Shown here: one piece after another, positions 1,484 through 39,673 of the stretch
How positions within the stretch are numbered: position 1 is the stretch's first letter
How the letters are laid out: every line of letters starts with the position of its first letter
Source of the DNA: Candidatus Sulfomarinibacter sp.
GTDB taxonomy: Bacteria > Acidobacteriota > Thermoanaerobaculia > Thermoanaerobaculales > Sulfomarinibacteraceae
Length of the DNA: 64,000 nt
Direction of reading: 5' to 3'
Assembly (NCBI GenBank): GCA_041560205.1
Contig: JBFFBV010000003.1
Span: 2,211-66,210 of the forward strand
Made by a program: the position numbers and the translations under genes
The notes under the pieces: model-generated
Told to the model about the DNA's origin: nothing
The model's input: the letters and a program-made list of their open reading frames with translations, nothing else
Databases searched by the model: none

Positions 1484-1950
1484 CTGCCCGGAAGACCGAC
1501 ATCCCATGCTTCCCCCGGTGCGCGGCCGATGTTTTGCAGCCATCGGCAGTGCCGTTCGCTGGCACGGCGTCTCGGCGCACGGCCGACGCACCCAGCCCGA
1601 GACCGCCGCGTCACGCGTCGCGATCGACGTCACGCCTTCGATCTCGGGCCGACACGCGCTCGCAGAGTTCAAGAAATGTGCCACCCGAGGGCGTCGACGG
1701 AAGGCAGCCACGCACCGAGTAATTCCCGCGGTCCCGACCCGATTCTCGGTGGCTGCCGTGATGAGACACGGCACACTCTGTGCCACGCGGACCTGTGCCG
1801 TGACACAGACCGGCAACCCCCAAAAGTCACCCGGCGGCACCCCGAAGCGCGACGTGCCGGCCCATTTTCGAGGTCGCAAAACTCCCCTGAACAACGCTTT
1901 AGCCGACCCGCTTCCGGGCCCGCCCCAATCCCTCCCCGCGCCCCGCCCCC

Positions 1951-1966
1951 TGGCACAGATCTTGAT
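1951..1966 (+). promoter_or_regulatory. Weak sigma-54-like -24/-12 element upstream of the Cu/heme operon
   Basis: TGGCAC-agatc-TTGAtg about 140 nt upstream of the 2108 ATG. The -12 element is TTGA rather than TTGC, so the match is imperfect. Confidence 0.2.
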
Positions 1967-2107
1967 GCCCCGCGGGGCAACAACTCACCAGCTGGATCGG
2001 AGGCCCGGATGCCCACGGTGCGGCCCCGGGCCCACACCGGCGCGACACGACGAACCCGCGGCCGGGGCGCGCCCCGGTCGTGGCAGGGCGGTTCGGAAGG
2101 AGGATGC

Positions 2108-2602
2108 ATGGTTCACGCGATGCTCTGGTTGACCGCCCTCGTGTCCCTGTTCGCGATCTTCGCGATCCCGGTCGTTATCACCAACAACGACCTCCAGGTG
2201 CCCCTCCACCCCGGCGAGAGCGACCGCTGCCCGGTGTGCGGGATGCTGGTGGCCCCCCACCCCGACTGGGCCGCCCAGGTGCGGCACGGCGACGGCACGA
2301 CCGTCTTCTTCGACGGCTGCAAGGACCTCTTCAAGTATCTCCTGATGTTCGAGATCTACGCGCCGCGGCAGGACCGCCGGGACGTGGCCGCAGTCTTCGT
2401 CACCAACTATTACGACGGCGAGCTGATCGCCGCCCGCAGCGCATTCTTCGTCGCCGGCGGCGACGTCGACGGGCCGATGGGCGCGGAGCTCGTGCCCCAC
2501 CGCAGCATCGAGGCCGCCGAGGATTTCCTCAAGGACCACCACGGGCGCCGGATCCTGCGCTTCGAAGAGATCGACGAATCGGTGATTCGCGAAATGTACT
2601 GA
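2108..2602 (+). CDS. NosL-family copper-chaperone-like protein (membrane anchored)
   Basis: Last 164 aa of ORF 830..2602. ATG at 2108 is preceded by GGAAGGAGGA. N-terminal TM segment, then the DRCPVCGM motif followed by FFDGCKDLF, typical of the NosL family. Confidence 0.72.
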   Translation: MVHAMLWLTALVSLFAIFAIPVVITNNDLQVPLHPGESDRCPVCGMLVAPHPDWAAQVRHGDGTTVFFDGCKDLFKYLLMFEIYAPRQDRRDVAAVFVTNYYDGELIAARSAFFVAGGDVDGPMGAELVPHRSIEAAEDFLKDHHGRRILRFEEIDESVIREMY

Positions 2603-2619
2603 GGAAGGAGGAACTTCCG

Positions 2620-3402
2620 ATGCTTCGGCTCGATACCTCGCACGCGCTCGCCGCCCCTCCACCGCGTCGCCAACCCGCCCGCCTTCGCCCCGTCGCCGCG
2701 AGGGTCCGCGCCGACCCCGAGCCCCGTCCGGACCTGGTCGAGGCCCACCGGGTGAGCAAGCGCTTCGCTTCGCCGGGCCGCGCCGGCGTCGCCGCGGTCG
2801 ACGACGTCACCATCCGCATCCCCGAGCGTTCGATCACGCTGATCCAGGGCCCGAGCGGCTCCGGCAAGACGACCCTGCTCGCGGTCATCGGCTGCATGCT
2901 GCGGCCGACGGCCGGCCGGGTCACCGTGGCCGGCCGCGACATCACGCGGCTGTCGGAGGATCTGCTGGCCGACGTGCGAAGGCGCCACTTCGGCTTCGTG
3001 TTCCAGAGCCGCCACCTGATCCAGCGCGCGACCGCGCTCGAAAACGTGATGGTGCCGGGCCTCCCCTGCCCCGAGTTCAACGGCGACCTCCGGCTGCGCG
3101 CGCGCTCGCTGCTGGCGCGGCTCGGCCTCGAGGCGAAGGCCCACCGGCGCGTCCAGAGCCTCTCCGGCGGCGAGCAGCAGCGGGTGGCCATCGCGCGCGC
3201 GCTGGTCAACGACCCGGAGGTGCTGATCGCCGACGAGCCGACGGCCCACCTCGACTCCAGCTCGGGCTCCACGTTCATCCACCTCGCCTTCGAGCTGCTG
3301 GCTCGCGGCAAGTCCGTCATCGTGGCCAGCCACGACCCCGCCATCTGCAGCATCGATTCCTACACCCGGGTCTTCGAGCTGCGCGACGGCCACCTGGTCT
3401 GA
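2620..3402 (+). CDS. ABC transporter ATP-binding protein (MacB/LolD/FtsE-like)
   Basis: ATG at 2620 follows GAGGAAGGAGGAA. Walker A GPSGSGKTT, signature LSGGEQQRVAIARAL, Walker B VLIADEPT, and FVFQSRHLI...ALENV typical of the FtsX-partner ATPase clade. Confidence 0.9.
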   Translation: MLRLDTSHALAAPPPRRQPARLRPVAARVRADPEPRPDLVEAHRVSKRFASPGRAGVAAVDDVTIRIPERSITLIQGPSGSGKTTLLAVIGCMLRPTAGRVTVAGRDITRLSEDLLADVRRRHFGFVFQSRHLIQRATALENVMVPGLPCPEFNGDLRLRARSLLARLGLEAKAHRRVQSLSGGEQQRVAIARALVNDPEVLIADEPTAHLDSSSGSTFIHLAFELLARGKSVIVASHDPAICSIDSYTRVFELRDGHLV

Positions 3403-3414
3403 GGGGGTGACGGC

Positions 3415-4416
3415 GTGGTCCTCAGCCTCCCCGTCCTCGCCCTCCTCGGCTGCTCGGCGGTCGTCTGCGGCCTCACCGTCATGGCCGCGGCCGTCGGTAT
3501 GTCGGTCGCGATCGGCTGGGACCACCTCGACAGCGGGCCGGAGCAGCTGCTCCGCGAACGGCGCTGGTTCCTGGTCGAGGCGAGCCTGCGCCTGATCTTC
3601 GGCCTGCAGGTGTTTTCGCTCGTGCTCTTCGTCTTCGCCACCGACCACCTCGCGCCACTCTTCACCGGGGCGATGTGCGCGGTGGGCACCCTCAAGGCCA
3701 GCCAGATCGGTTTTCCGACCCTGCTCGTCAAGGTCGGGGTCTTCGCGCTCTGCGGCCTGTGGCTGGTCGCCGACAGCGTCAGCGCCGGCGCCGCGAGCAC
3801 CGGTCTGGTCCGCTTCAAGGTCGTCTCGCTGCTGGCGCTCGCCGCCGCGCTGGCGGGCGAGAACCTGCTCCAGATCCGCTACTTCCTCGACCTCGACCCG
3901 GACATCATCACGTCCTGCTGCGCGACGCTCTTCGACCGGGGGGCCGCCGGCATCGGCGCGGGCGTCGCGAGCATTTCGCCGACTCTGAGCCGGGCCGCGT
4001 TCTTCGGCGGCCTCGTGCTCACGGCCGTGGTCGGCATGCGCGCTTTCGGCAGCCGCCGCTTCGCCCTCGCCTACTCGGTCCTGGCCGCGGCCCTCGGCGC
4101 GATCTCGACCGTGGCGATCATGACCTGGATCGCTCCGGCTTACTACGAGCTCCCCACCCATCACTGTCCGCTCTGCCTGCTGGCCGCTGAGCACGGCTTC
4201 ATCGGGTATCCGCTCTACCTCTCGCTGGCGGCAGCCGTCATCACGGGCGTCGGCAGCGGGCTAGTTTCCGCTTTGCGGGCGATCGACCCTCTCCGCTGCA
4301 TCCGGCCGCAGGAGGAGCGAAAGCTCTGCACCGTGTCCCTCGCCTGCTTCGCGCTGGTCACCGGCATCGCGCTGTGGCCGATGGTGACCTCGCCCTTTCG
4401 AATGGAGGTCCTGTAA
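3415..4416 (+). CDS. Polytopic membrane protein of unknown function with CC and HHCPLC motifs
   Basis: GTG at 3415, 7 nt after GAGGGGG and 12 nt after the upstream stop. About 8 hydrophobic segments. Cys motifs: ITSCCATLF and ELPTHHCPLCLL. I do not recognise the family. Confidence 0.6.
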   Translation: MVLSLPVLALLGCSAVVCGLTVMAAAVGMSVAIGWDHLDSGPEQLLRERRWFLVEASLRLIFGLQVFSLVLFVFATDHLAPLFTGAMCAVGTLKASQIGFPTLLVKVGVFALCGLWLVADSVSAGAASTGLVRFKVVSLLALAAALAGENLLQIRYFLDLDPDIITSCCATLFDRGAAGIGAGVASISPTLSRAAFFGGLVLTAVVGMRAFGSRRFALAYSVLAAALGAISTVAIMTWIAPAYYELPTHHCPLCLLAAEHGFIGYPLYLSLAAAVITGVGSGLVSALRAIDPLRCIRPQEERKLCTVSLACFALVTGIALWPMVTSPFRMEVL

Positions 4417-4495
4417 GCGATGCTCACCGGCGGGGCCACCAACCCCGCCACAACGTCAACACCCTTCGCTGTGAAGGGCGCACCAGGGGGTGGTC

Positions 4496-5938
4496 ATGAA
4501 GCAATCGTCTCGATGCATACGCCTGGCGTTGCTCGGCGGTGTGATTCTGATCTTCGGAGTCGCCGAGTCCTTCGCCATACCGACCTTCGCGCGCCGCTAC
4601 GCCACGAGCTGCGCGACCTGCCACGAGGCCTACCCGCGCCTCAACGCCGTCGGCGACTCGTTCCGGATGATGGGCTTCCGCTTTCCGGACGACGAGCGCT
4701 ACCGCAAGGTGCAGCCGGTCGAGCTCGGCGACGAGGCCTACAAGCGGCTGTGGCCGAAGGCGCTGTGGCCGAGCCACGTCCCCGGGAGATCGCCCCTGGC
4801 GCTGGTCACGCGCTTCATGTTCGAGGTCGACCTCAACGGCAGCCGCCAGGCGGCGACCACCTTCCTGCTGCCGGAGGAGATCGAGCTCGTGTGGGCCGGC
4901 AACCTCGGCGAGAACATCGCCTTCTACGGTGACGTGATCTATCTGCAGAAGGACTTCGGCGGTAAGGACCCGGAATCCTGGGCCACCCTCAAGGCGTGGC
5001 TGCAGCTGCAGAGCCTGTTCGGGCGAGACCATCTCTTCAACCTGCGCATCGGCACCGTCGGTACCCAGACGATGGGGCTCTTCAACGCCCGCGACGCCAA
5101 CATCTACAGCACCCACTTCTACATCTACACCTCGTGGTTCATGCCGCGGCCCAACCTCGCCCAGGCCGGGTTGTCGGAGTTTGAGGGCAACAACTTCTCG
5201 ATCACACCGCAGCAGGGCTTCGAGCTCAACGGCCTCGGCAAGAGGTGGTTCTACGCTCTCGGCATCGTCAACGGCAACCTCCTGGTGCCCGCAGGGTCCC
5301 CTCCCCCGAGCGACATCAGCTTCGTCGGCTCGGGGCGGAACACCGACCACAAGGACCTCTACGCCAATGTCGTCTACAAGATCGGCGGCACCCAGTTCGA
5401 CCGCAGCAGCGAACAGCTGCCCGCCACGCTCGGCGCTTCCGGCTCGCAACACTGGCGCGACAACAGCCTCCGGCTCGCCCTCTTCGGCTACTCCGGCACG
5501 GCCGAGATCACGACCGTCGACCTCGAGGGCGGGACGTCGGTCGGGGAGGACGACTTCTGGCGGCTCGGCGTGGGGCTCCAGCACTATATCGGCGATTTCC
5601 AGTGGTCCGCGCAGTACACCGCCGGCAGCAACGACGATCCGTACGGCAGCCTCAGCGGGCAGGCGGTCGACTCGCGGACCTGGCACGTCGAAGCTCTCGG
5701 ATTCGCCTATCCGTGGCTGATGCTCTATGGGCGCTGGGAGGGGCTCGACCTGGACCTTCCGTCGGACGTCCCCGGCCTGGTGCCCGTCCAGGACATCGAA
5801 AAGATCGTCGCCGGGGCCAAGTTCATGATCCGGCCGAACGTGTTCTGCAACGTCGAAGGCACCTACTACACCGAAGGGGCCGAACTGGAGGCGGGCCTTG
5901 ACCAGACGCTCTTCATGCTGCTCGGCATCTCGTTCTGA
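4496..5938 (+). CDS. Outer-membrane beta-barrel protein with N-terminal CXXCH; Cyc2-like fused monoheme cytochrome-porin candidate
   Basis: ATG at 4496 follows CAGGGGG. Signal peptide MKQSSRCIRLALLGGVILIFGVAESFA. The mature N-terminus IPTFARRYATSCATCHEAYPRLNAVGDSFR carries a single CXXCH. The rest shows alternating amphipathic strands with aromatic girdles and ends in a terminal Phe (LLGISF). Confidence 0.6.
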   Translation: MKQSSRCIRLALLGGVILIFGVAESFAIPTFARRYATSCATCHEAYPRLNAVGDSFRMMGFRFPDDERYRKVQPVELGDEAYKRLWPKALWPSHVPGRSPLALVTRFMFEVDLNGSRQAATTFLLPEEIELVWAGNLGENIAFYGDVIYLQKDFGGKDPESWATLKAWLQLQSLFGRDHLFNLRIGTVGTQTMGLFNARDANIYSTHFYIYTSWFMPRPNLAQAGLSEFEGNNFSITPQQGFELNGLGKRWFYALGIVNGNLLVPAGSPPPSDISFVGSGRNTDHKDLYANVVYKIGGTQFDRSSEQLPATLGASGSQHWRDNSLRLALFGYSGTAEITTVDLEGGTSVGEDDFWRLGVGLQHYIGDFQWSAQYTAGSNDDPYGSLSGQAVDSRTWHVEALGFAYPWLMLYGRWEGLDLDLPSDVPGLVPVQDIEKIVAGAKFMIRPNVFCNVEGTYYTEGAELEAGLDQTLFMLLGISF

Positions 5939-6620
5939 GGCGCTCCGTTGCCTCGCCTCGGCCGTCCTGGCGGCGGCGGTGGTCCTCGGAGCGGCCCCGA
6001 TCGAGGGCTCCTGCCCGGGCTGCGGCTCCGTGTCCGGCACGGTCGCCGTCGAGCAGGCCTACATCCGCAGCGACGGCCCCAAGCACGACCGCGACGTCGT
6101 CGTCATGCTGTCGCCGACCGGAGCCGAGGCCCCGCCGGAGCCCGCGGCGCACGCGTCGATGGACCAGAGGGGTCTGATCTTCGTGCCGCACGTGCTGGCC
6201 GTGCCGAAGGGCGCGACCGTCACCTTCCTCAACAGCGACCGGGAGCAGCACAACGTCTACTTCCTCGACGACCGCACCGGCGACACCCTCGACATCGGCA
6301 CCTGGGGACCCGGGGTCAGCGTCGACCACAGCTTCGACACGCCCGGGATGGTCATCACCCTGTGCAAGCTCCACCTCGAGATGGCGGCCTACGTGGTGGT
6401 GTGTCCGAGCCCGTGGTTCGTGCAGGTCGCATTCGAGGACAACGACACGCCGCTTCGCTTCGAGATCGCCGACGTCCCGGCCGGCGAGTACGAGCTGACG
6501 GTGTGGCACAAGAAGCTCAAGCAGAAGGGAGGATCGTTGACGATCGACGTGCAACCCGAGAAGTCCACCGAGGTGGACCTTGTCATCACGAAGGCAAAGT
6601 ACGCCAGGGCAGCTCGCTGA
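5898..6620 (+). CDS. Type-1 copper cupredoxin (plastocyanin/'methylamine utilization'-like) with C-terminal Ig/CarboxypepD_reg-like domain
   Basis: TTG at 5898, 6 nt after GGAGG (5887-5891), overlapping the upstream gene by 41 nt. Signal-like LASAVLAAAVVLGAAP. T1Cu ligand pattern: HNV ... C-K-L-H-L-E-M. C-terminal FEIADVPAGEYELTVWHKK. Confidence 0.72.
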   Translation: MTRRSSCCSASRSEALRCLASAVLAAAVVLGAAPIEGSCPGCGSVSGTVAVEQAYIRSDGPKHDRDVVVMLSPTGAEAPPEPAAHASMDQRGLIFVPHVLAVPKGATVTFLNSDREQHNVYFLDDRTGDTLDIGTWGPGVSVDHSFDTPGMVITLCKLHLEMAAYVVVCPSPWFVQVAFEDNDTPLRFEIADVPAGEYELTVWHKKLKQKGGSLTIDVQPEKSTEVDLVITKAKYARAAR

Positions 6621-8604
6621 GGGCGGGCTCGCGGGATTCGGAGGCTGGGACCTGCGGTCGGCGGCTCGTCCGAGCGTGATCTGGCGCTGGTGGCCGGCCG
6701 CCGTCGTCGCGATGGCCTGTGTGGCCTTCTTCCAGGCGACACGGCCCGAGGTGGTCGTGGCGGCGTCGCCCCGAGAGGTCGAGATCATGGCGCGACAGTA
6801 CGCCTACGAGCCGCACCGCATAGTCGTCGACCCCGGCGACGAGGTCCACCTCCGGCTCGCCTCGACCGACGTCGTGCACGGCTTCTACCTCGAGGGGCAC
6901 GACATCGAGGCGGAGATCCGGCCGGGCTCGCTCACCGCCTGGGCCCGGCGCCCCTCCACCGGCGAGGATTTCCGCGAGCTCGAGGAGATCGTGTTCACCG
7001 CCGGCAGGCCCGGCAAGTACCGCTATCGCTGCTCGGTGACCTGCGGGACCCTCCACCCCTTCATGCAGGGCGAGATGATCGTGCGCCCGAACCTGCTCTA
7101 CCGGGCGTCGCTGATCGCGGCCTGCGGCCTGACCCTGGGCATCTTCGGTCTGATGATGACCGGCGCGTTGGGCAACGGCGTCTCCCGGGCTACGGGAAGT
7201 CCACCGTGCCGCCGGATCGACCTGCTGCGAGTGCTTCCCGGGCTGAGGTGGCTGGTGACGCGACGCTGGTTCCAGTTCGCCGTCGTCCTTCCCAACCTGC
7301 TGGTGCTCTTCTTCTTCGTCGTCGCCGGCTTCTTCGGCTCGCCGATCGGCAACCGCAACATCATCGTGACGATCGTCTGGATCCTGTGGTGGTTTCTCCT
7401 CATCACCGTCCTCGTTCCGGCCGGCGGCAGGGTGTGGTGCATGGCCTGCCCGGTCCCCTTCGCCGGCGAGTGGCTGGCGAGGCGCCGCCTGATCGGCGTC
7501 CGGCGCGAGGCCGAGAGATCGCGGTCCCTCCGCACCGGCGGCCTGAACCGCCGCTGGCCCCACCGTCTGTCGCGAATGTGGCTGCAGAACCTGCTCTTCC
7601 TCACCGTGTGCACCGTGTCGACCATCCTGGTCACCCGGCCCGCGCTGACAGCGGCGGTTCTCATGACGATGGTGGTGGCGGCCGTGGCGATGCACGCGCT
7701 CTACAAGAGACGGAGCTTCTGCAGGTACCTCTGTCCGCTCAACGCGTGGCTCAGCGTGTACTCGATGGCCTCGGCGACGGAAATCCGGCCCCGCGACACC
7801 GGTCTGTGTGCCGACTGCAGAGACCACTCCTGTGCCGGCGGGTCGGCCGAGGCCTGGGGCTGCCCGTGGATGGTCAACCCCTCCAAGCTCGACCGCAACA
7901 ACTACTGCGGCCTCTGCATGGAGTGCATCAAGGCCTGCCCCAACGACAACATGAGCCTTCACGCGCGCCCCGTATTCGCCGACGTGTCGATCCGCCGCCT
8001 CGACGAGGCCTTCATGGCCCTGATCATGATCGCTCTCGTGATCGCCTACACCGTCACGCTCCTCGGACCATGGGGCACGCCCCGCGAGTGGTCCAACGTC
8101 ACCGAGGTCGGCAACTGGGGAGGCTTCGCCCTCCACGCGTCGGTCGTGTGGCTGTGCGCCCTGGGGCTCGTCCCCGCGATCTGGTACGGCCTCTCGTGGC
8201 TGGCGCACCGGGTCGCGGGCACGAGCACCGTGTCCGTCCGCGAGATCTTCGTCCGCTCCACCTACCTCCTGGTGCCGGTCGGTCTGCTCGCGTGGATCGC
8301 CTTCAGCCTGCCCCTCATCATGCTCAACTGGACCCACATCGCCTCCTCGCTGTCGGACCCCCTGGGGTGGGGCTGGGACCTCTTCGGAACCGCCCGCCAG
8401 CACTGGAGCCCCCTCTACCCCGAGTGGATCCCCTCGCTCCAGGCCCCGCTGCTGCTGCTCGGTCTCGCAGTGGCCCTGGTGCGCGGTCACCGGGTGGCCC
8501 AGGGCCTCTTCGCCGATCCTTCGGCCGCCATCCGCAGCCTGATTCCGCACGGTCTGGCCTGCGCCGCCATCACCGCCGTCATGCTGCGGCTTTTCGTGGG
8601 ATGA
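6580..8604 (+). CDS. CuA-type (COX2-like) cupredoxin domain fused to NapH/NosH/MauN-like membrane polyferredoxin
   Basis: N-terminal TM WRWWPAAVVAMACVAFF. Cupredoxin with DVVHGFYL ... C-SVT-C-GTL-H-PF-M, which is the CuA ligand spacing. Then multiple TM segments with CMACP and CRYLCP (CX2-3CP) motifs, and two ferredoxin motifs (CADCRDHSC...CPW; CGLCMECIKACP). Start uncertain: TTG 6580 (SD GAGG; 41-nt overlap with the upstream gene), CTG 6652 (after GGAGG) or GTG 6676. Confidence 0.8.
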   Translation: MSSRRQSTPGQLAEGGLAGFGGWDLRSAARPSVIWRWWPAAVVAMACVAFFQATRPEVVVAASPREVEIMARQYAYEPHRIVVDPGDEVHLRLASTDVVHGFYLEGHDIEAEIRPGSLTAWARRPSTGEDFRELEEIVFTAGRPGKYRYRCSVTCGTLHPFMQGEMIVRPNLLYRASLIAACGLTLGIFGLMMTGALGNGVSRATGSPPCRRIDLLRVLPGLRWLVTRRWFQFAVVLPNLLVLFFFVVAGFFGSPIGNRNIIVTIVWILWWFLLITVLVPAGGRVWCMACPVPFAGEWLARRRLIGVRREAERSRSLRTGGLNRRWPHRLSRMWLQNLLFLTVCTVSTILVTRPALTAAVLMTMVVAAVAMHALYKRRSFCRYLCPLNAWLSVYSMASATEIRPRDTGLCADCRDHSCAGGSAEAWGCPWMVNPSKLDRNNYCGLCMECIKACPNDNMSLHARPVFADVSIRRLDEAFMALIMIALVIAYTVTLLGPWGTPREWSNVTEVGNWGGFALHASVVWLCALGLVPAIWYGLSWLAHRVAGTSTVSVREIFVRSTYLLVPVGLLAWIAFSLPLIMLNWTHIASSLSDPLGWGWDLFGTARQHWSPLYPEWIPSLQAPLLLLGLAVALVRGHRVAQGLFADPSAAIRSLIPHGLACAAITAVMLRLFVG

Positions 8605-8611
8605 GGAGGTC

Positions 8612-9559
8612 ATGAACAGCGAACGACTCGCCGCCGCGCTCGTGATCCTGCCGATGGTGGCCATCGTCACGGCCATCGCGTGGTTCGGCTGGCTCTCCGA
8701 GCGGGTTCTCGGCGCGCAAGAGACCGTCGTCTTCGATCTCACGGGGGTGGCCTCGGCCGGCGTCTGGACCCTCGGTCCCGTCAACGGCCTGAACTACTGG
8801 TGGCGTGACTTCCAGCCCGCGACCCTGCAGGTCACCGAGGGCGACGAGGTGGTCATCCACCTGAGGAGCGCCGACGTCTTCCACCGCTTCTACCTGCCGG
8901 CCTTCGAGGTCGGACCGGTGGCGATCGAGCCTGGCCACACCGTGACGGTCCGCTTCACGGCCGACCGTGCGGGCATCTATCAGTACTACTGCACATCGAT
9001 GTGCGGTGGCTGCCACTTCTACATGCGCGGGTGGATCGTCGTCAGCAGGGAGGGCGAAGATCCGGTCCAACCCCCGCCGATCATGTGCACCCTGTGCCGC
9101 CCGGATGACCTGCCACGCCCCACCAGCGAGAGCCTCGTCGACCGGGGCGCCTACCTCTACCTCGAAAAGGGCTGCGTGACCTGCCACGGCCCCGAGGGCC
9201 AGGGCGGAATCGTCAACCACAACTCGGCCAACAGCCCGGTGCCCGCGCACAACACGACCGCCGAAAAGCTCTTCCTCCGATCGCCGGAGGATGCCGAGGC
9301 CTTCATCCGACTGCTGGACGAGCACGACGACCTCGAAGCTCTCGAGGAGCCGCCGGAGATCGGCCTCTTTCCGGTCGTGCGCACCCGCTACGAGAACGCG
9401 AGGGAGATCGTCCGCAAGGGGCGGTACTCTTCGAAGCTCGACCCGGCCGGTCCGGAACCGCCGCTGCAGATGCCGGCATGGCAGCACATCGTGCGGGACC
9501 GGGAGATCGACGCGCTGTTGGTCTACTTCGTATCGCTCTATCCCTGGGAGGAGGGCTGA
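8612..9559 (+). CDS. CuA-type cupredoxin domain fused to class-I cytochrome c
   Basis: ATG 7 nt after the upstream stop. N-terminal TM. ADVFHRFYLP - x - C-TSM-C-GGC-H-FY-M has the spacing H-x35-C-x3-C-G-x2-H-x2-M seen in COX2 CuA sites. C-terminal half has CVTCH and a distal LQMPAW. Confidence 0.8.
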   Translation: MNSERLAAALVILPMVAIVTAIAWFGWLSERVLGAQETVVFDLTGVASAGVWTLGPVNGLNYWWRDFQPATLQVTEGDEVVIHLRSADVFHRFYLPAFEVGPVAIEPGHTVTVRFTADRAGIYQYYCTSMCGGCHFYMRGWIVVSREGEDPVQPPPIMCTLCRPDDLPRPTSESLVDRGAYLYLEKGCVTCHGPEGQGGIVNHNSANSPVPAHNTTAEKLFLRSPEDAEAFIRLLDEHDDLEALEEPPEIGLFPVVRTRYENAREIVRKGRYSSKLDPAGPEPPLQMPAWQHIVRDREIDALLVYFVSLYPWEEG

Positions 9560-9876
9560 TGACGAGAGGCTACAGGATCGTGATCGCCCTGGTGCTTCTC
9601 GAGGCTGTGACCGTGGCCGCCCTCAGCGTCGCCGGAAGCGCCGCGAGCCGCGTGGACGATCAGGCTCGGCAGTCCAACCGCCGCCTGGTCCGCGAGATGC
9701 TGCTCACCGACCTTGCCCTCAGCACCGGCACCAGCTATTGCCGCCACCCGTCGCAGACCGACCTCTTCGCGCCTTACGGCGACCACCCCTCGGCTATCGA
9801 GCACTTCCCGGCGGGATCCATCATGGCACCTCCGGCCGTCTCGACTCCCTCCACCGCAACCGGACCCGGACCATGA
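9559..9876 (+). CDS. Small single-TM protein, unknown function
   Basis: Its ATG overlaps the upstream TGA (cTGATGa). Its stop overlaps the next ATG (ATGA at 9873-9876). N-terminal TM IVIALVLLEAVTVAALSVAG. No recognisable family. Confidence 0.5.
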   Translation: MTRGYRIVIALVLLEAVTVAALSVAGSAASRVDDQARQSNRRLVREMLLTDLALSTGTSYCRHPSQTDLFAPYGDHPSAIEHFPAGSIMAPPAVSTPSTATGPGP

Positions 9877-11039
9877 GACGCCATCTTCGAATCCTCGACT
9901 TCGCCATCGCGAACCTGCGCCGCAGACCGGCGAAGTTTCTGGTCGTCGTTCTCGTCTACTCGATCCTGGTCGCAGCTCTCGCCTCGCTCATGATGTTCGT
10001 CGACGCCGTCCGGCGTGAGGCTCGCTCGCTCCTCGACGGGTCCCCCGAGATCATCGTGCAGAGCCTTCGCGGAGGCCGGCACGAGCTGATCCCGGTCGAG
10101 CGCGCCGATGCGATCCGGGCGATCCGCGGCGTCGGCAGCGTCACACCGCGGGTGTGGGGCTACTCCTACGACCCGCCGACCGGCGCGACCCTCACCTTCT
10201 GGGGCGCCGAATCCGTGCCCGACGAGTCCCTGGCTTTCGAGGATCAGGAGCTGTCGAGCGGTGAGCTCGTCGGCGGGTGCGTCATCGGGTCCGGGCTCGC
10301 CGACCTCCGCTTCCTGGGGGTCGGTGACCGCCTCCCTGTGAAGGGGTACGACGGGTCGCTGTTCGCGCCGAAGGTGGTCGGCATATTCGAAAGCTCTTCG
10401 TCAATTCTCACCAATGATCTCGTCGTCTGGCCGACCGACGACCTCCGCCGCGTCTTCGCTATCGACCCCGCCCTCGCAACCGATCTCGCCGTCGAGATCC
10501 ACAACCGCAACGAGATCGACACGGTCGCGGCGAAGATCCTCGACAGGTGGCCGGACGCGCGCGTCATCACCCGGGATCAGATCTTCGCCACCTACGACGC
10601 GGCCTTCGACTGGCGTGGAGGGCTGTGGGCCGCCTTCATGGCATGTTGCGTGGCCGCCTTCGCGATCCTGGTCTGGGACAAGGGAACGGGGCTCTCCGCC
10701 GAAGAGTACCGGACCATCGGTCTGCTCAGGGCCACCGGCTGGAAATCGCGGGAGGTCATGGAGCTCAGGGTTTTTGAAGGCGGGCTGGTCTCGCTCGTTG
10801 CATTCCTCACGGGGCTCATCATCGCCCAGATCCACCTGATCTGCTTCGACGGCTTCGTCTTCGCCCGTGTCATCAAGGGATGGTCGGTGCTCTTTCCCTC
10901 CTTCGAGATCGTGCCCGTTCTCGACCTCCCGACGCTCCTGATCTGCGGATCGCTGTCCCTCGTGCCCTACATCGCGGCCAACCTGGTGCCGTCCTGGAAG
11001 GCCTCCGTCACCGATCCAGACTCCGTGCTCCGAAGCTGA
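9873..11039 (+). CDS. ABC transporter permease, FtsX/MacB family
   Basis: Last 388 aa of ORF 9291..11039. N-terminus MRRHLRILDFAIANLRRRPAKF, a periplasmic MacB-like domain, and a C-terminal FtsX 3-TM bundle (RTIGLLRATGWKSREV). Confidence 0.85.
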   Translation: MRRHLRILDFAIANLRRRPAKFLVVVLVYSILVAALASLMMFVDAVRREARSLLDGSPEIIVQSLRGGRHELIPVERADAIRAIRGVGSVTPRVWGYSYDPPTGATLTFWGAESVPDESLAFEDQELSSGELVGGCVIGSGLADLRFLGVGDRLPVKGYDGSLFAPKVVGIFESSSSILTNDLVVWPTDDLRRVFAIDPALATDLAVEIHNRNEIDTVAAKILDRWPDARVITRDQIFATYDAAFDWRGGLWAAFMACCVAAFAILVWDKGTGLSAEEYRTIGLLRATGWKSREVMELRVFEGGLVSLVAFLTGLIIAQIHLICFDGFVFARVIKGWSVLFPSFEIVPVLDLPTLLICGSLSLVPYIAANLVPSWKASVTDPDSVLRS

Positions 11040-11051
11040 AGAGATCGATCG

Positions 11052-11486
11052 ATGCGCGCAGCTTCAATCCTCGCGACCGCAATTTTGATCATGGTTGCCT
11101 GCTCGCCCACCGCGCCGATGCACCAGCTGGTGGCGTCCGACGGCGACGCCGTTCGGATCTCCCTCCAGGAGGTGTCGGACGGCTCGGTCCACTTCTTCAC
11201 CTTCATCCACCGGGGGACGCGAGTGAACTTCCTCGTCCGGACGGACGGAGACGGCGCCCAGCACGCCCACCTGGACGCCTGCTATGCGTGCTATCGCTAC
11301 AAACAGGGATTCGTGGTCGAGGACGAAGCGTTGGTGTGTATCGCCTGCCGGCTCGAATACCGGCTCGAGGACGAGATCTGGGACTACATCGGCGCCTGCG
11401 CCCCGATCGAGATTCACGCGTCGTTGGAAGGCGGTGCGCTGGTCATCGACGAGGCGGTCCTCGAGCGCGCCGCCCGCTACTTCTGA
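11052..11486 (+). CDS. Cys-rich lipoprotein, DUF2318 (FtrD/FetA-like Fe-S/metal-binding) candidate
   Basis: Lipobox ILIMVAC. VHFFTF...NFLVRTDGDG...LDACYACYRYKQGF...LVCIACRL has two CxxC pairs in the arrangement I associate with DUF2318 proteins found next to FtsX/ABC genes. Confidence 0.6.
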   Translation: MRAASILATAILIMVACSPTAPMHQLVASDGDAVRISLQEVSDGSVHFFTFIHRGTRVNFLVRTDGDGAQHAHLDACYACYRYKQGFVVEDEALVCIACRLEYRLEDEIWDYIGACAPIEIHASLEGGALVIDEAVLERAARYF

Positions 11487-11519
11487 GGGACGCTCCCGAT
11501 CACTTTTCGGAGAGGGTTC

Positions 11520-12770
11520 CTAGATGACCGTCCCGTCCGGGATGACCGCGTTCTTGGCCACGACCACGATGCCGTCGCGGATCGCCCAGCCGTCGCCCTC
11601 GGCCTCCTCGATCCCGGCTTCGTTGCAGATGCGGACCTTGCGGCCGATGCGGGCGTTCTTGTCGATGATGGCGTTGCTGATCTCACAGCCCTCGCCGATG
11701 CCGGGCTCCGGCTCTCCTGGCTCCGGGGCCGGGTAGTGCGAGTCGATGCCCATGATCAGGGCGTTGCGGACCGTTGACTTCCGGATCACGCCGCGCAGGC
11801 CGACGACCGCGTTTTCGATCTCGGAGTCCTCGACCCTGGATCCGTCGGAGAGCAGCGCGCGGTCGAAGCGGCACCGGTGGAGCCTGGCTCCGGGGAGGTA
11901 GCGCGGACGAGTGTAGATCGGCCACGCCTGGTCGTGGAAGGAGAATTGCGGATCCTCTTCCACGAGGTCCATGTGGGCCTGGAAGAAGGCGCCGATGGTC
12001 CCGATGTCGCGCCAGTAGCCCTTGAAGAAGTGGGCCTGGACGCGGCGCTTGGAAACCTCGGCCGGGATGATGTCGCCGCCGAAGTCGACGAGCGCATTGT
12101 CCAGCGCCTCCACGAGCGCCTGCTTGCGGAAGATGTAGATCCCCATCGACGCGAGGTAGGGCAGATCGGAGGACACACCCTTGGCCTCGAGGAGGCTCGG
12201 CGCGACCTCCATCCCCGCTCTCTCTGCGGCGGTCGAGGGCTTCTCCCGGAACTCGACGATGCGCCCGCTCTCGTCGACCATCACCGCCCCGAAGCCGGCG
12301 ATCTCCTGGCTCGAGCACGGCTTGACGGCGATCGTGATGTCGGCTTCATGGTCGACGTGGTCCTGCAGGAGCTGGCGGTAGTCCATGCGGTACATGTGGT
12401 CGCCGGCGAGGATCAACACGTGCTCGCCCGGAAGCTGCGTGAAGATGTGGAGGTTCTGCCTGACGGCATCGGCGGTTCCCTGGAACCAGGTCTGGACCGT
12501 CGGCGTCTGCTGCGCGGCGAGGATCTGCACGTAACCGCGGGAGAAGGCGTCGAATCGATAGGTGCGTCCGATGTGGCGGTGGAGCGACACCGAGTTGAAC
12601 TGGGTGAGGACGTACATCCGCTCCATGCCCGAGTTGATCGCATTCGAGATCGGGATGTCGATCAGCCGGTACTTCCCCGCCACCGGCACGGCCGGCTTGC
12701 TCCGGCGGAGGGTCAGAGGCGCAAGTCGCGTGCCGCGGCCGCCGCCGAGGATCAAGACTGTGACGTCCAA
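11520..12770 (-). CDS. glgC: Glucose-1-phosphate adenylyltransferase
   Basis: Full-length ORF. N-terminus LILGGGRGTRLAPLTLRRSKPAVPVAGKYRLIDIPISN, and a left-handed beta-helix C-terminus (IGEGCEISNAIIDKNARIG). Confidence 0.92.
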   Translation of the reverse strand: MDVTVLILGGGRGTRLAPLTLRRSKPAVPVAGKYRLIDIPISNAINSGMERMYVLTQFNSVSLHRHIGRTYRFDAFSRGYVQILAAQQTPTVQTWFQGTADAVRQNLHIFTQLPGEHVLILAGDHMYRMDYRQLLQDHVDHEADITIAVKPCSSQEIAGFGAVMVDESGRIVEFREKPSTAAERAGMEVAPSLLEAKGVSSDLPYLASMGIYIFRKQALVEALDNALVDFGGDIIPAEVSKRRVQAHFFKGYWRDIGTIGAFFQAHMDLVEEDPQFSFHDQAWPIYTRPRYLPGARLHRCRFDRALLSDGSRVEDSEIENAVVGLRGVIRKSTVRNALIMGIDSHYPAPEPGEPEPGIGEGCEISNAIIDKNARIGRKVRICNEAGIEEAEGDGWAIRDGIVVVAKNAVIPDGTVI

Positions 12771-12853: not shown

Positions 12854-13972
12854 CTACCGACCGCCGCGAAGGGCCGCCGCCGCCAGCGGCAGCAAGCCGC
12901 CCGATCCGAGGATTCGTGGACCGTCGGCGCGCATCTTGAGGGCCAGGAAGCGGGACATCAGGGAAGGATCCGCGGCGAGTGAACGCATCACCCGGCGCCG
13001 CAGCCGTGGCCGACCCTCGACGAGCAGAAGAAGGCGCGTGATCGCATTGGGATAGCGGCCGATACGGCGGTGGGCGGCAGCGTAGCGGCGCAGGTCGCCC
13101 GCAACGATCGACTCGACGAGAGCTCGAGCATGGTGAAACGAGAGGGCGAGCCCCTCGCCGGTAATGGCGTCGACGTATCCCGATGCATCGCCGACGAGTG
13201 CGAGCTTGCCGCGCACGACGGCGGAGCAGCGCTGTTCGAGGGGTCCCGCACCACGGTCTTTCGAGGCGACCGGTGCATCGGCGAGCCGCGTCTCGAGCTG
13301 CGGGAATCGTGCGAGCAGGTCGTCAAAGGACGCGGTGTCTCCGGACCACAGCAGCGCGACTCCGACGAGGTGATCCCCCACCGGGGTGACGTAGGCCTCG
13401 CAGCCGTCGGCCCAGGAGACCTCGACCCGATCGCACCACGGCTCGATTCCGAAATGTCGGCGGACGCCGAACCTCCGGCGTCGCGCCGGACGGCCGGCGA
13501 GACCCGACCACTCCCGGACCCGCGAGCCTCGGCCGTCGGCGCCGACCAGCCACCGCCCACCGAAGGGATCGTGATCAGTTTCGAATCCATCTTCCGTCAA
13601 CCCACCGACCCGCACTCCCCACCGCAGATCGACTCCGAGATCGTGGGCTCGCTGAATGAGAGCGCCGTGAAGAACGGTCCGGCGGATCCCGACACCCGGC
13701 TTCCCCGGGAACTCTCCCTCGGCCTCGAGCGCGCCGTCGATGTAGCGGATGCCGCGGAAAGGACGTGACTCCACGCTCCGCAAATCCACCCCGAGACCCT
13801 CCAGGTTCTCGACGCCGTCCGGCATGAGGCCCTCGCCACAGGCCTTGTCGATTGGTCCCCTTCCCGAGCGTTCCAGCACCACCACATCGAGCCCTTCGAG
13901 GCGCGCCGCGATCGCGGTGGCGAGCCCCGCGGGCCCTGCGCCCGCGACGACGAGATCTGCCTGTTCAGCCAT
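12854..13972 (-). CDS. FAD-dependent oxidoreductase/monooxygenase (geranylgeranyl-reductase-like; SrsC/FtpE-like position)
   Basis: ATG at 13972 (MAEQADLVVAGAGPAGLATAIAARLEGLDVVVLERS, dinucleotide-binding GxGxxG). Overlaps the upstream FAAL stop by 8 nt. Confidence 0.85.
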   Translation of the reverse strand: MAEQADLVVAGAGPAGLATAIAARLEGLDVVVLERSGRGPIDKACGEGLMPDGVENLEGLGVDLRSVESRPFRGIRYIDGALEAEGEFPGKPGVGIRRTVLHGALIQRAHDLGVDLRWGVRVGGLTEDGFETDHDPFGGRWLVGADGRGSRVREWSGLAGRPARRRRFGVRRHFGIEPWCDRVEVSWADGCEAYVTPVGDHLVGVALLWSGDTASFDDLLARFPQLETRLADAPVASKDRGAGPLEQRCSAVVRGKLALVGDASGYVDAITGEGLALSFHHARALVESIVAGDLRRYAAAHRRIGRYPNAITRLLLLVEGRPRLRRRVMRSLAADPSLMSRFLALKMRADGPRILGSGGLLPLAAAALRGGR

Positions 13973-17569: not shown

Positions 17570-17737
17570 CCGACTCCCGGGGCGCCCCGCCCCGGTCCCA
17601 TGGATCTCGAAAATGCTTTCAGCCGTTCCATCGCCGTGTGCAACAGGGATGTGCGCCCGTGTATTGCTTCTCGATTCGCCGCCGGAACCTGGATCCGGCG
17701 CTCGCGAAGCCGCTGTTTCCGGTTAGCATGGGGCGCG

Positions 17738-19879: not shown

Positions 19880-19882
19880 CCA

Positions 19883-36454: not shown

Positions 36455-36497
36455 GATCTCCAGGACCATTTACAATCACCACTCCGGGAGGAGTTCG

Positions 36498-39666: not shown

Positions 39667-39673
39667 ACGTGTC

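Follow-up and report, generated by a model that had tools for sequence, protein, structure and literature searches.

A CuA–polyferredoxin fusion protein encoded in a copper-rich operon with a Cyc2-like haem-porin

Results

A widespread fusion of a CuA domain and a membrane polyferredoxin

The gene at 6580–8604 of the window, a 64,000-nucleotide stretch of a Candidatus Sulfomarinibacter sp. contig, encodes a real and widespread membrane protein in which a periplasmic CuA domain is joined to an Fe–S membrane module of the NapH/NosR type. It is likely to connect the inner membrane, by way of copper proteins, with a haem-porin of the outer membrane. We favour, at a probability of about 0.55, a reading in which the gene provides the inner-membrane end of a copper-rich, envelope-spanning electron-transfer chain with outward flow. 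Literature searches returned no published description or characterised example of such a fusion, as the original prediction had supposed.

The longest open reading frame begins with TTG, and the only alternative in-frame start is the GTG at 6676, which gives 642 residues. The longer frame shares its first 41 nt with the upstream gene (end at 6620). More distant homologues start 5–12 residues ahead of the first transmembrane (TM) helix. The anatomy of the protein is the same with either start. Residues are numbered here from GTG 6676, and conservation counts refer to alignment A1 (n=50 homologues). An N-terminal TM helix is followed by a CuA cupredoxin, a NapH-like core and a C-terminal 5-TM domain, 11 TM helices in total (AF2 model: pLDDT 87.6, pTM 0.90; Table 1). 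Pfam matches are to Fer4_5, Cupredoxin_1 and COX2 and, judged by sequence and structure comparison, the CuA and NapH-type domain assignments are far above chance. The N-terminal anchor proposed originally is seen both in hydropathy analysis and as an AF2 helix.

Table 1. Genes of the operon and parts of the fusion protein, with positions in the window.
Feature	Position	Strand	Basis
NosL-family copper chaperone	2108..2602	+	Pfam NosL E 1.7e-28; in 19 loci
MacB/LolD-type ABC transporter ATPase	2620..3402	+	NCBIfam MacB 3.9e-56, LolD 1e-53
333-aa polytopic membrane protein, Cys/His-rich	3415..4416	+	Invariant MC, SCC, HHCPxC in 21 orthologues
Outer-membrane monohaem cytochrome-porin, Cyc2-like architecture	4490..5938	+	AF2, Foldseek, single CXXCH
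Type-1 (blue) periplasmic cupredoxin with C-terminal Ig-like (CarboxypepD_reg/fn3) domain	5898..6620	+	Pfam Copper-bind 1.1e-4
CuA–polyferredoxin fusion gene	6580..8604	+	Longest ORF, TTG start at 6580, 674 aa
N-terminal TM helix, residues 3–21	6682..6738	+	Hydropathy; AF2 helix; signal-anchor, N-in
Predicted periplasmic CuA cupredoxin domain, residues 32–136	6769..7083	+	Ligands, PDB profile, Foldseek
TM1 (residues 140–162) and NapH-like core TM2–TM5, Fe–S domain predicted cytoplasmic	7093..7983	+	NCBIfam, Pfam Fer4_5, conservation
Conserved C-terminal 5-TM domain, residues 437–642	7984..8604	+	AF2 helices, conservation
Membrane-anchored CuA–cytochrome c fusion	8612..9559	+	Pfam COX2 and Cytochrom_C
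Small TM-anchored protein, 105 aa, conserved	9559..9876	+	tblastn, 20 loci, same operon position
MacB-type ABC permease (MacB_PCD + FtsX)	9873..11039	+	Pfam 3.1e-12 and 5.1e-6
DUF2318 / 'FtrD-like' Cys-rich protein, 144 aa	11052..11486	+	Pfam PF10080 E 2.7e-18

Structure of the CuA domain and the membrane core

The cupredoxin domain carries the ligand set that defines a CuA domain, H...C-x3-C-x3-H-x2-M on a cupredoxin fold. His68 (codon 6877–6879) lies within DVVH68GF, and the other ligands are presented by the loop C119-SVT-C123-GTL-H127-PF-M130 (7030–7065). The claim that all CuA ligands are there extends to the whole alignment, with H68, C119, C123, H127 and M130 each found in 50/50 homologues. 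In a PDB profile search the family profile hits the CuA domain of Thermus ba3 (E 5.5e-19), and Foldseek returns the same domain (2cua, 6ptt; TM 0.70–0.73, 31–34% identity). We infer from these sequence features that the predicted site is loaded with copper, and the motifs of the core with Fe–S clusters.

NCBIfam NapH/MauN matches residues 241–428 with an E-value of 2.3e-10. The CMACP and CRYLCP motifs described originally are each present in 50/50 homologues, but only FC349RYLC353P354 (7720–7737) is CX3CP, WC255MAC258P259 (7438–7452) being CxxCP. The window protein has all eight cysteines of the two [4Fe-4S] ferredoxin motifs noted originally. Motif 2 (7906–7941) is invariant (C411, C414, C417 and C421, each 50/50), and motif 1 (7807–7866) is complete in 38/50 homologues and incomplete in 12/50 (C378 46/50, C381 50/50, C386 38/50, C396-P 50/50).

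A topology prediction, suggested originally as a check, gave CuA outside and Fe–S inside. The CuA domain is predicted to be extracytoplasmic since it falls between TM0 (N-in) and TM1, with six Lys/Arg in the next loop (167–196), and a further 12 Lys/Arg occupy the predicted cytoplasmic loop 261–300. This charge bias and the confident AF2 model both point to CuA in the periplasm and the Fe–S clusters in the cytoplasm. PDB profile and Foldseek searches found no solved homologue of the membrane part. No quinone site is discernible within it, and no electron-carrying cofactor is evident in the ~30 Å of membrane between the Fe–S clusters and CuA.

The C-terminal domain (AF2 helices 442–463, 481–514, 521–550, 582–611 and 615–640) has no Pfam match, even at E 10. 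Its invariant residues include E477, Q589 and residues of a periplasmic loop, such as S560-D-P-x-G-x-G-W567. The original prediction mentioned neither this domain nor the operon context or the NosR/NirI precedent considered below.

Fused and split forms of the protein

Searching with the fusion protein gave 824 matches. More than 100 are full-length (48–88% identity, 95–100% coverage), come from independent assemblies and are spread over about eight phyla. The fusion had been called unusual, which is right relative to characterised proteins but not for the family itself, whose members are frequent in metagenomes of sediment and soil and numerous in sulfate reducers, Anaerolineae and Thermoanaerobaculia. 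Canonical iron oxidisers were not seen among the homologues and loci examined. The fused form is a single intact ORF in 34 of the 80 assessable genome loci, among them one on the complete Desulfoluna limicola chromosome; in about 44 loci the gene is split but its halves are adjacent. Such adjacent, separate CuA and polyferredoxin genes are found in Chloroflexota, Planctomycetota, Myxococcota and others.

The split loci could be taken to mean that an assembly error or frameshift has joined two genes here, and separate genes in related genomes had been named beforehand as a sign of this. They appear in distant lineages only, however. The frame is intact in the independently assembled homologues and in the 34 fused loci, and the two halves are linked by a conserved TM helix (residues 140–162) that the topology needs. 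An artefact, to which we give practically no chance, is thereby effectively refuted. The adjacency of the halves in distant lineages argues instead for functional coupling: fused in some phyla and split but adjacent in others, the CuA domain and the polyferredoxin are likely to work together (the Rosetta-stone argument). The fused gene is real and subject to selection.

A conserved operon of copper proteins and a haem-porin

The fusion gene belongs to a conserved 10-gene operon (2108–11486) with tight spacing and overlapping stop and start codons, as where the gene for the 105-aa protein begins within the stop codon of the CuA–cytochrome c gene. The order haem-porin, type-1 cupredoxin, fusion and CuA–cytochrome c is kept in the annotated loci L001–L003 and in about 30 further loci. 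A CuA or CuA–cytochrome c gene lies beside the target in 81/85 loci, although some of these matches are the target's own CuA domain. In the CuA–cytochrome c protein, H91, C127, C131, H135, M138, C188-xx-C191-H192 and M287 are invariant (n=26 orthologues). The type-1 cupredoxin, which may start at 5898 or at 5979, shares H118, C156, H159 and M162 with 90% or more of the 39 orthologues compared.

NosL, the MacB-type ABC transporter, the Cys/His-rich membrane protein and the DUF2318 protein (C77, C80, C96, C99, C116, H47 and H73 invariant) most likely serve copper supply and insertion. The Cys/His-rich protein, a putative metal- or thiol-handling protein, has no Pfam or NCBIfam match. Such neighbours would also suit a fusion protein that is itself a maturation factor, a CcoG-like cupric reductase or copper handler that holds copper transiently and whose Fe–S clusters keep Cu(I) for the neighbouring cupredoxins; CcoG, which also belongs to the Fer4_5 superfamily, has cupric reductase activity. 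We consider this very unlikely. A complete, invariant set of CuA ligands on a ba3-type fold marks a stable site of electron transfer, and CuA and polyferredoxin persist in Chloroflexota loci without the NosL/ABC set. Moreover, the same organism has a bona fide CcoG (39587–41077), which hhalign aligns to the fusion family over only 20 columns, and a Rieske/cytochrome b complex takes the equivalent position in paralogous operons (see below).

The haem-porin (482 aa) comprises a signal peptide, the sequence FARRYxTSC41xxC44H45, which holds its one CXXCH, and a porin-type β-barrel of about 16–18 strands (AF2, pLDDT 83) that Foldseek matches to 16-stranded porins (E 1e-10). Its features agree with those defining Cyc2-type proteins, namely a signal peptide, a single N-terminal CXXCH, a length of at least 365–400 aa and a 16-stranded porin barrel (PMC8406198). 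The likeness is one of architecture. Those of its relatives that carry a name are each labelled 'hypothetical protein' and belong to lineages that are not iron oxidisers. Its superfamily numbers 2761 representatives. The porin gene adjoins the fusion gene in 33 loci and, reading in the same direction with little space between the two, is the most constant partner of that gene in diderm lineages. In a Desulfobacterota subgroup an MtrC-like pentahaem cytochrome replaces the porin.

This constancy bears on whether the porin might be unrelated, the fusion protein being a NosR/NosH-like quinol dehydrogenase that feeds a NosZ or NirK encoded elsewhere via the cupredoxin and cytochrome c. NosL is present in the cluster, the CuA domains of the cluster also match the NosZ C-terminal domain, and NirK and NosZ usually take their electrons from type-1 cupredoxins and c-type cytochromes. 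Against this, no nosZ, nirK or nor lies beside the cluster in the annotated loci L001–L003 or among the large window ORFs scanned. Together with the close association of porin and fusion gene, this makes such a role highly improbable.

Paralogous pairs of haem-porin and type-1 cupredoxin (28% and 38–40% identity to the window's pair) occur elsewhere. In three loci (L086, L087 and L090) the pair is followed by Rieske, cytochrome b and cytochrome c genes, so that a known quinol oxidoreductase stands at the operon position of the CuA–polyferredoxin and CuA–cytochrome c. This equivalence suggests that the fusion protein is a quinone-linked inner-membrane module.

Discussion

Direction of electron flow

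In the reading that we favour, the NapH/NosR-type core with its two cytoplasmic [4Fe-4S] clusters would exchange electrons with the quinone pool or a cytoplasmic reductant and pass them to the protein's own periplasmic CuA centre. From there they would move to the co-encoded CuA–cytochrome c and type-1 cupredoxin and on to the Cyc2-like monohaem porin in the outer membrane, which would react with a redox partner in solution or outside the cell. The NosL, MacB-type ABC, Cys/His-rich and DUF2318 proteins of the operon would supply and insert the copper. Quinone coupling, direction and substrate are inferred, the first from the NapH-type core and from the Rieske/cytochrome b at the same position in paralogous clusters. 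To our knowledge, every characterised protein related to the membrane module (NapH, NosH and NosR) sends electrons outward. NapGH and NosGH are quinol dehydrogenases, and the CuA entry site of NosZ receives electrons from NosR. In potential, CuA and type-1 copper centres as a rule lie far above quinones and [4Fe-4S] clusters. Because of these relatives and potentials we favour flow from quinol through CuA to the outside, where the final acceptor would be of high potential, for example Mn(III/IV), chelated Fe(III) or O2.

The same anatomy could run inward. The porin would then oxidise dissolved Fe(II), or Mn(II), electrons would go via the type-1 cupredoxin and CuA–cytochrome c to a terminal oxidase, for instance the cbb3 enzyme, or to a nitrate reductase, and the CuA–polyferredoxin would be the uphill entry for reverse transport to quinone or cytoplasm. 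Reduction of quinone or [4Fe-4S] by CuA should be thermodynamically uphill, and electrons that move inward have to work against the membrane potential. Moreover, we know of no NapH-family protein that runs inward, and the family is abundant in the lineages named above and unseen in canonical iron oxidisers. Inward flow is nonetheless plausible, if unlikely, given the Cyc2 precedents and the cbb3 oxidase cluster 25 kb away in the window. Validated Cyc2 cytochrome-porins are Fe(II) oxidases (PMC8406198), and Mn(II) oxidation has also been proposed for Cyc2 (PMC9040806). The haem-porin, blue copper and CuA proteins mirror Cyc2, rusticyanin and CoxB in the rus operon of A. ferrooxidans, which brings together Cyc2, rusticyanin and a CuA-containing cytochrome oxidase (bioRxiv 10.1101/2021.03.22.436458; PMC8406198). 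In L003 the cluster stands beside narGHJI and a NiFe hydrogenase, and in paralogous clusters the porin is accompanied by Rieske/cytochrome b and NAD(P)H-type Fe–S flavoproteins, which is compatible with reverse electron flow.

More tentatively, the CuA–polyferredoxin and CuA–cytochrome c may form an unrecognised class of haem-b-free respiratory complex, a Cu/Fe–S analogue of Rieske/cytochrome b that connects the quinone pool, and possibly cytoplasmic reductants by way of the Fe–S domain, to a Cyc2-type conduit of the outer membrane. If so, sulfate reducers, Thermoanaerobaculia, Anaerolineae and others would have a copper-based extracellular electron route to or from high-potential metals.

Comparison with known systems

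In membership tests the fusion protein falls outside NapH, NosR, CcoG and COX2. Its closest architectural precedent is NosR/NirI, in which an N-terminal periplasmic redox domain is likewise joined to the same type of membrane polyferredoxin, a polytopic part with Cys-x-Cys-Pro motifs and cytoplasmic 2x[4Fe-4S]. The proposed client of NosR is also a CuA centre, that of NosZ, and NosL shares a cluster with the fusion gene. Unlike NosR/NirI, however, the fusion protein has a CuA cupredoxin and no FMN_bind domain in a Pfam search, an extra 5-TM C-terminal domain, and a haem-porin and cupredoxins as partners. Neither nosZ nor nirS is linked to it in L001–L003 or among the window ORFs scanned.

The original description as NapH/NosH-like suits the core, which shares with NapH/NosH/MauN (TIGR02163) its topology, TM hairpins with C-x-C-P motifs and two cytoplasmic [4Fe-4S] motifs over residues 241–428, but does not extend to family membership (40.4 bits versus a cutoff of 213 for TIGR02163; 26.7 versus 234 for NapH PRK09477). 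Those proteins have two CX3CP motifs, roughly 290 aa and four TM helices, whereas the fusion protein has one CX3CP and one CxxCP, 642 aa and 11 TM helices. No gene for a NapG/NosG-type periplasmic polyferredoxin is found among the 10 cluster genes or in L001–L003, its place being taken by the fused CuA.

CcoG/FixG/RdxA, a cupric reductase for cbb3 oxidase assembly, shares the Fer4_5 superfamily, a GRVWC..CP motif, cytoplasmic Fe–S clusters and copper-related biology. It has no CuA domain, and its Fer4_18 and FixG_C domains, present in the window CcoG, are absent from the fusion protein. In FtrABCD Fe(II) uptake the periplasmic cupredoxin FtrB has been proposed as electron donor to FtrD, a membrane polyferredoxin. 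However, the window cluster has no Ftr1-type permease or P19 protein, the 'FtrD-like' PF10080 match falls on the separate 144-aa gene rather than on the fusion, and FtrB, although a cupredoxin (PMC11966278), is mononuclear and non-CuA.

The rus operon of Acidithiobacillus ferrooxidans and the Cyc2 systems of neutrophilic iron oxidisers share the outer-membrane monohaem cytochrome-porin, periplasmic blue copper and CuA protein. They differ in that the window cluster is without a haem-copper oxidase subunit I, carries its CuA domains in fusions with a polyferredoxin and with a cytochrome c, and occurs in lineages that are not known iron oxidisers. Subunit II of the ba3 and caa3 oxidases has a homologous CuA domain with identical ligand spacing, and the caa3-type fusion of CuA and cytochrome c is repeated in the gene next to the fusion gene. 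Differences lie in the TM arrangement, a Pfam COX2 score just at threshold (21.9 versus 22) and the want of an adjacent subunit I: among the ORFs scanned, the cluster has no COX1, and the window's sole COX1 is that of the cbb3 ccoNO gene (36411–38789). The cbb3 oxidases have no CuA subunit. Both modules are known separately; CuA on a NapH/NosR-type core makes up an uncharacterised but widespread family.

Architecture of the fusion protein

The open reading frame originally predicted to join a CuA cupredoxin to a NapH/NosH-like polyferredoxin is present as described, in a window of ~66% G+C. The gene before it ends at 6620 and overlaps its first 41 nt; the sole other in-frame start is GTG 6676, giving 642 rather than 674 residues. 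The longer frame stays open in close relatives. Distant homologues have stop codons just upstream and start 5–12 residues ahead of the first hydrophobic helix, which would make the shorter form at least as likely as the longer; residues are numbered here from GTG 6676.

All motifs were checked against an alignment of 50 homologues (47–88% identity). The CuA ligands expected of the cupredoxin, His68, Cys119, Cys123, His127 and Met130, are all present, each in 50/50 sequences. Both membrane Cys-Pro motifs are also there and invariant (50/50), but the first, WC255-x2-C258-P259, is CxxCP rather than the CX3CP originally assigned, a pattern kept by the second (FC349-x3-C353-P354). The two 4Fe-4S motifs are likewise found. 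Motif 2 (C411, C414, C417, C421-P) is conserved in 50/50 sequences and motif 1 somewhat less uniformly (C378, 46/50; C381, 50/50; C386, 38/50; C396-P, 50/50).

Pfam models recognize Fer4_5 (1.2e-6), Cupredoxin_1 and, at threshold, COX2. NCBIfam models align residues ~35–138 to the CuA domains of NosZ and CoxB, and residues 241–428 to NapH/MauN with E 2.3e-10 (40 bits against a cutoff of 213). When the family profile was compared with all PDB sequences, it matched the soluble CuA domain of Thermus ba3 oxidase (E 5.5e-19), followed by NosZ and then aa3/caa3 subunit II, with no match to the membrane part. An AlphaFold2 model built on the alignment is confident (pLDDT 87.6, pTM 0.90), and comprises a helix (3–21), a beta-sandwich (32–136), a further helix (140–162), four helices (199–342), a small alpha/beta Fe-S domain (345–436) and five long helices (442–640). 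Foldseek comparison of this model with the PDB returned CuA domains alone (TM 0.70–0.73, 31–34% identity). By sequence and modelled fold, the N-terminal domain is a bona fide CuA cupredoxin, and the membrane part is without a solved relative in the PDB by sequence and fold searches. The C-terminal five-TM domain matches nothing in Pfam at E up to 10 and is highly conserved, with D443, E477, N551, S560-D-P, W567 and Q589 invariant in the alignment.

Fused and split forms of the family

The fusion protein has 824 matches among 5.8 billion proteins searched, and of the top 120, more than 100 are full length (611–718 aa, 95–100% coverage, 48–88% identity) and stem from many independent assemblies, under source names that include 'polyferredoxin/plastocyanin' and '4Fe-4S binding protein'. 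Scanning a single genome for each GTDB species identified 119 loci; 80 of these were retained, and a reading-frame check showed the two parts fused in 34 of the 80 assessable loci. These independent homologues and fused loci effectively rule out assembly error, a concern attached to the original prediction, and the fusion is genuine. The fused form occurs in Acidobacteriota, Desulfobacterota, Methylomirabilota, Verrucomicrobiota, one betaproteobacterium and a few Chloroflexota, and is intact in the complete chromosome of Desulfoluna limicola ASN36 (Desulfobacterota). At ~44 loci, a separate ORF with an intact CuA motif lies directly upstream of the polyferredoxin ORF; the stop and start codons of such pairs often overlap, and a small DUF1573 gene intervenes at some loci. 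This split form is found in most Chloroflexota, in Planctomycetota, Myxococcota, Dehalococcoidia and Acidimicrobiia, and in a MAG labelled Nitrososphaerales. Hence, the two subunits always occur together and have been joined into one protein in particular lineages. The pairing is obligate, which is evidence that the two parts work jointly and again argues against assembly error.

The nearest named relatives in the genome scan are MAGs of Thermoanaerobaculia and 'Ca. Sulfomarinibacteraceae' (77–79% identity), and MAGs labelled Planctomycetota sit in the same 90%-identity clusters. The family as a whole spans about eight phyla of sediment, soil and groundwater bacteria. In the low-GC MAG labelled Nitrososphaerales, the CuA and polyferredoxin ORFs share one frame with a single stop codon between them. 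A pentahaem c-type cytochrome, unusual for this archaeal order, is encoded on the same contig, which would suggest mis-binning.

Predicted topology

Hydropathy analysis of the fusion protein gives 11 TM segments. Its N terminus is positively charged, and the loops after TM1 (167–196) and TM3 (261–300) carry 6 and 12 Lys/Arg residues, respectively. From this charge distribution, both loops are predicted to be cytoplasmic and the cupredoxin periplasmic, in line with the original proposal. The Fe-S domain would then lie within the cytoplasm and both Cys-Pro motifs at the cytoplasmic face of the membrane, with the conserved loops 221–228 and 560–568 on the periplasmic side. The published topology of NapH agrees with this arrangement. 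No bridging cofactor through the membrane between the Fe-S clusters and CuA is evident in the fusion protein. TM3 carries invariant W235, W238 and W239; electron hopping along this chain was considered and dismissed, since Trp radical potentials are far above that of CuA.

A conserved operon of copper and haem proteins

The fusion gene sits in a tightly packed, co-oriented block, where its partners are copper and haem carriers and an outer-membrane haem-porin. The core order of haem-porin, type-1 cupredoxin, fusion protein and CuA-cytochrome c recurs in L001–L003 and ~30 other homologous loci, and the NosL/ABC/Mem333/FtsX/DUF2318 set is present in ~20. A CuA or CuA-cytochrome c gene lies beside the polyferredoxin in 81/85 loci, although some of these hits fall on the CuA domain of the target itself. 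All-against-all clustering of flanking ORFs from 81 loci revealed no recurrent catalytic enzyme; solely regulators, PCYCGC and DUF1573 proteins, and multihaem cytochromes recur.

Coordinates of the genes and loci discussed
Feature	Location	Coordinates	Strand	Basis or remarks
Co-oriented block	window	2108-11486	+	
NosL	window	2108-2602	+	Pfam 1.7e-28
MacB/LolD-type ABC ATPase	window	2620-3402	+	NCBIfam
Mem333, 333-aa membrane protein, familyless	window	3415-4416	+	invariant M87-C88, S167-C168-C169, H249-H250-C251-P252-x-C254
Haem-porin, 482 aa	window	4490-5938	+	motif, AF2 barrel, Foldseek
Type-1 cupredoxin + Ig-like domain	window	5898-6620	+	Pfam; H118, C156, H159, M162 conserved
Fusion protein (CuA-polyferredoxin)	window	6580-8604	+	motifs, profiles, model
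Membrane-anchored CuA-cytochrome c	window	8612-9559	+	Pfam; CuA ligands, CxxCH, axial Met invariant
Conserved 105-aa TM-anchored protein	window	9559-9876	+	20 loci, same position
MacB-type permease (FtsX)	window	9873-11039	+	Pfam
DUF2318/'FtrD-like' Cys-rich protein	window	11052-11486	+	Pfam
Weak sigma-54-like site	window	1951-1966		TGGCAC-N5-TTGAT
Apparent phenolic-lipid (srs/ars-like) cluster	window	12854-17722	-	
Sigma-54-dependent response regulator	window	19880-21247		
cbb3 cluster	window	36411-48235		
Fused ccoN-ccoO	window	36411-38789		COX1 + FixO, one 792-codon ORF
ccoG	window	39587-41077		
ccoI	window	45779-48235		CcoI-type copper ATPase
Desulfobacterota subgroup locus	L035	4515-9839		
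Split-gene Chloroflexota locus	L066	6002-11350		
Nitrososphaerales-labelled MAG	L080	7902-9770		
Nitrososphaerales-labelled MAG	L081	3387-5697		
Paralogous haem-porin cluster	L086	7001-14166		
Paralogous haem-porin cluster	L087	7001-15290		
Paralogous haem-porin cluster	L088	4066-8266		
Paralogous haem-porin cluster	L089	6359-9513		
Paralogous haem-porin cluster	L090	7001-15515		

The gene for Mem333 always lies between those for the ABC ATPase and the haem-porin. The protein has no match in Pfam (E up to 10) or NCBIfam, and hhalign shows no relationship to the fusion family; a role in copper or thiol transfer is possible. Between the CuA-cytochrome c and FtsX genes, the ATG of the 105-aa ORF overlaps the preceding stop codon by one base. 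In 26/26 orthologues of the CuA-cytochrome c, an invariant extra Cys generates C127-TSM-C131-GG-C134-H135-FY-M138, so that a canonical CxxCH haem-attachment motif is nested within the CuA ligand loop (26/26); candidate occupants of loop 127–138 are CuA, haem or a three-Cys copper site.

Two groups of loci differ in their composition. A Desulfobacterota subgroup (L035, L030, L032 and L036–L039; 37–42% identity to the target) is without the haem-porin; upstream of its type-1 cupredoxin and fusion genes lie those for a stand-alone CuA protein and for a pentahaem cytochrome of 565 aa that has an MtrC/MtrF-like domain. The split-gene Chloroflexota (L066 and ~24 other loci) are without the NosL/ABC/DUF2318 set and carry a PCYCGC-motif lipoprotein (PF13798), DUF2085, a DUF1573 Ig-like protein, a class I cytochrome c, a histidine kinase and a NarL-type regulator.

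Scanning positions 1700–11800 for sigma-70 promoters and terminators gave nothing above chance. The weak sigma-54-like site, 140 nt ahead of nosL, has no -12 GC; the pattern was rejected as evidence, with 10 matches against 8 expected by chance. A sigma-54-dependent response regulator is encoded 8 kb downstream of the operon. The minus-strand phenolic-lipid cluster comprises an FAD oxidoreductase, AMP-dependent ligase, ACP, ICMT-like methyltransferase and type III polyketide synthase, the last alone having Pfam confirmation.

The haem-porin and exchangeable inner-membrane modules

The haem-porin has a signal peptide and one CXXCH within an invariant F-A-R-x-Y-x-T-S-C-x-T-C-H. In its AlphaFold2 model (pLDDT 83), a small helical region at the N terminus, modelled with low confidence, leads into a ~16–18-strand beta-barrel, which Foldseek matches to the 16-stranded general porins PorB, OmpC and OmpU (E ~1e-10). 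It has no Pfam match at E up to 10, and its profile has no meaningful match among PDB sequences. These features are the ones by which fused cytochrome-porins of the Cyc2 type are recognized in the literature (PMC8406198; see also PMC10654088), a likeness of architecture. An exhaustive profile search collected 2761 representatives at E<=1e-3, mostly 420–520 aa, that have the N-terminal motif in common. The named relatives, from distant representatives and a profile search with 15 distant relatives, are all 'hypothetical protein', from Acidobacteriota, Planctomycetota, Brocadiaceae, Verrucomicrobiota, Bacteroidota and similar lineages.

Five paralogous haem-porins were examined in their own contigs. 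After the porin, L086, L087 and L090 encode a ~200–230-aa protein and then Rieske, cytochrome b and c-type cytochrome proteins. The ~200–230-aa proteins of L086 and L087 are 38–40% identical to the type-1 cupredoxin of the window and keep its C-x2-H-x2-M loop, and the L090 counterpart has a weak Pfam Copper-bind match. L087 and L090 additionally encode GltD-like NAD(P)H Fe-S flavoproteins, an MtrC-like multihaem cytochrome occurs in L088 as in the L035-type Desulfobacterota subgroup, and further cupredoxins form another module type among the paralogue operons. A histidine kinase and sigma-54 response regulator lie directly upstream in several haem-porin/cupredoxin clusters. The haem-porin and type-1 cupredoxin are thus an outer-membrane/periplasmic module that is combined with interchangeable inner-membrane modules, an apparently undescribed system. 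In three cases the inner-membrane module is a known quinol:cytochrome c oxidoreductase, and in the window the CuA-polyferredoxin and CuA-cytochrome c hold the position of these Rieske/cytochrome b modules. This shared position is the best available, albeit indirect, support for the idea that the fusion protein may link periplasmic carriers to the quinone pool.

Direction of electron flow

The function that we infer for the fusion protein starts at its membrane core, which would oxidize quinol, or draw cytoplasmic electrons via the Fe-S clusters, and reduce its own CuA. From there, electrons would reach the porin haem by way of the CuA-cytochrome c and type-1 cupredoxin. Outward flow would be favoured because each of the characterized relatives (NapH, NosH and NosR) delivers electrons outward, in the case of NosR to a CuA site, and because typical CuA and type-1 copper potentials are far above those of quinones and [4Fe-4S] clusters, such that electrons moving inward would go uphill and have to work against the membrane potential. 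A terminal partner of high potential would be implied, which might, speculatively, be Mn(III/IV), chelated Fe(III) or O2. The reverse direction, with oxidation of Fe(II) or Mn(II) at the porin, would be compatible with the cbb3 oxidase cluster 25 kb downstream and has precedent in Cyc2/rusticyanin chemistry (10.1101/2021.03.22.436458; PMC8406198; PMC9040806).

A pure maturation role, akin to that of CcoG, is unlikely for the fusion protein. None of its CuA ligands is missing or variable, the genome encodes a separate CcoG, with which hhalign aligns just a 20-column WC..CP motif of the family, and Chloroflexota retain the CuA and polyferredoxin genes without the NosL/ABC set.

Significance and relationship to known systems

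The original prediction knew of no characterized example, and a full-text literature search bore this out, finding neither a CuA- or cupredoxin-polyferredoxin protein nor this operon; a polyferredoxin mentioned for 'Ca. Tenderia electrophaga' is described with no copper link. The components are of known kinds but their combination, which includes the conserved extra five-TM domain and the partnership with a Cyc2-like porin, is not known. CuA centres are known almost solely as the points where electrons enter haem-copper oxidases and N2O reductase, whereas in this family CuA is hard-wired to a NapH/NosR-type membrane polyferredoxin. If the proposed role is right, the operon would define a new copper-dependent trans-envelope electron pathway, one that supplies electrons to a Cyc2-like porin, or removes them from it, in place of bc1-type complexes. 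Such a pathway would matter for which organisms carry out Fe and Mn oxidation or reduction in anoxic sediments, and for how respiration with a high copper demand is sustained in sulfidic settings. As we understand it, the mechanism of NapH/NosR-type proteins is unresolved, and the fused CuA may provide an intrinsic probe, readable by optical and EPR spectroscopy, at the module's periplasmic end. The cultured host D. limicola ASN36 renders the hypothesis testable. The finding should interest the fields of bioenergetics and extracellular electron transfer.

The fusion protein belongs to none of the NosR/NirI, NapH, CcoG or COX2 families since its scores lie below both the NapH and the NapH-PRK cutoff and one of its Cys-Pro motifs is CxxCP, it lacks the FMN_bind domain that defines NosR and the Fer4_18 and FixG_C domains that define CcoG, and its cluster is without the subunit I partner that defines COX2. 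FtrB/FtrD of Fe(II) uptake systems are a looser analogue; the cluster has no Ftr1 or P19 gene, and the Pfam 'FtrD-like' model matches another of its genes rather than the fusion. Most alike in working is NosR/NirI, in which a periplasmic redox domain is carried on a NapH-type polyferredoxin, and the fusion protein resembles a joined version of NapH and its periplasmic partner.
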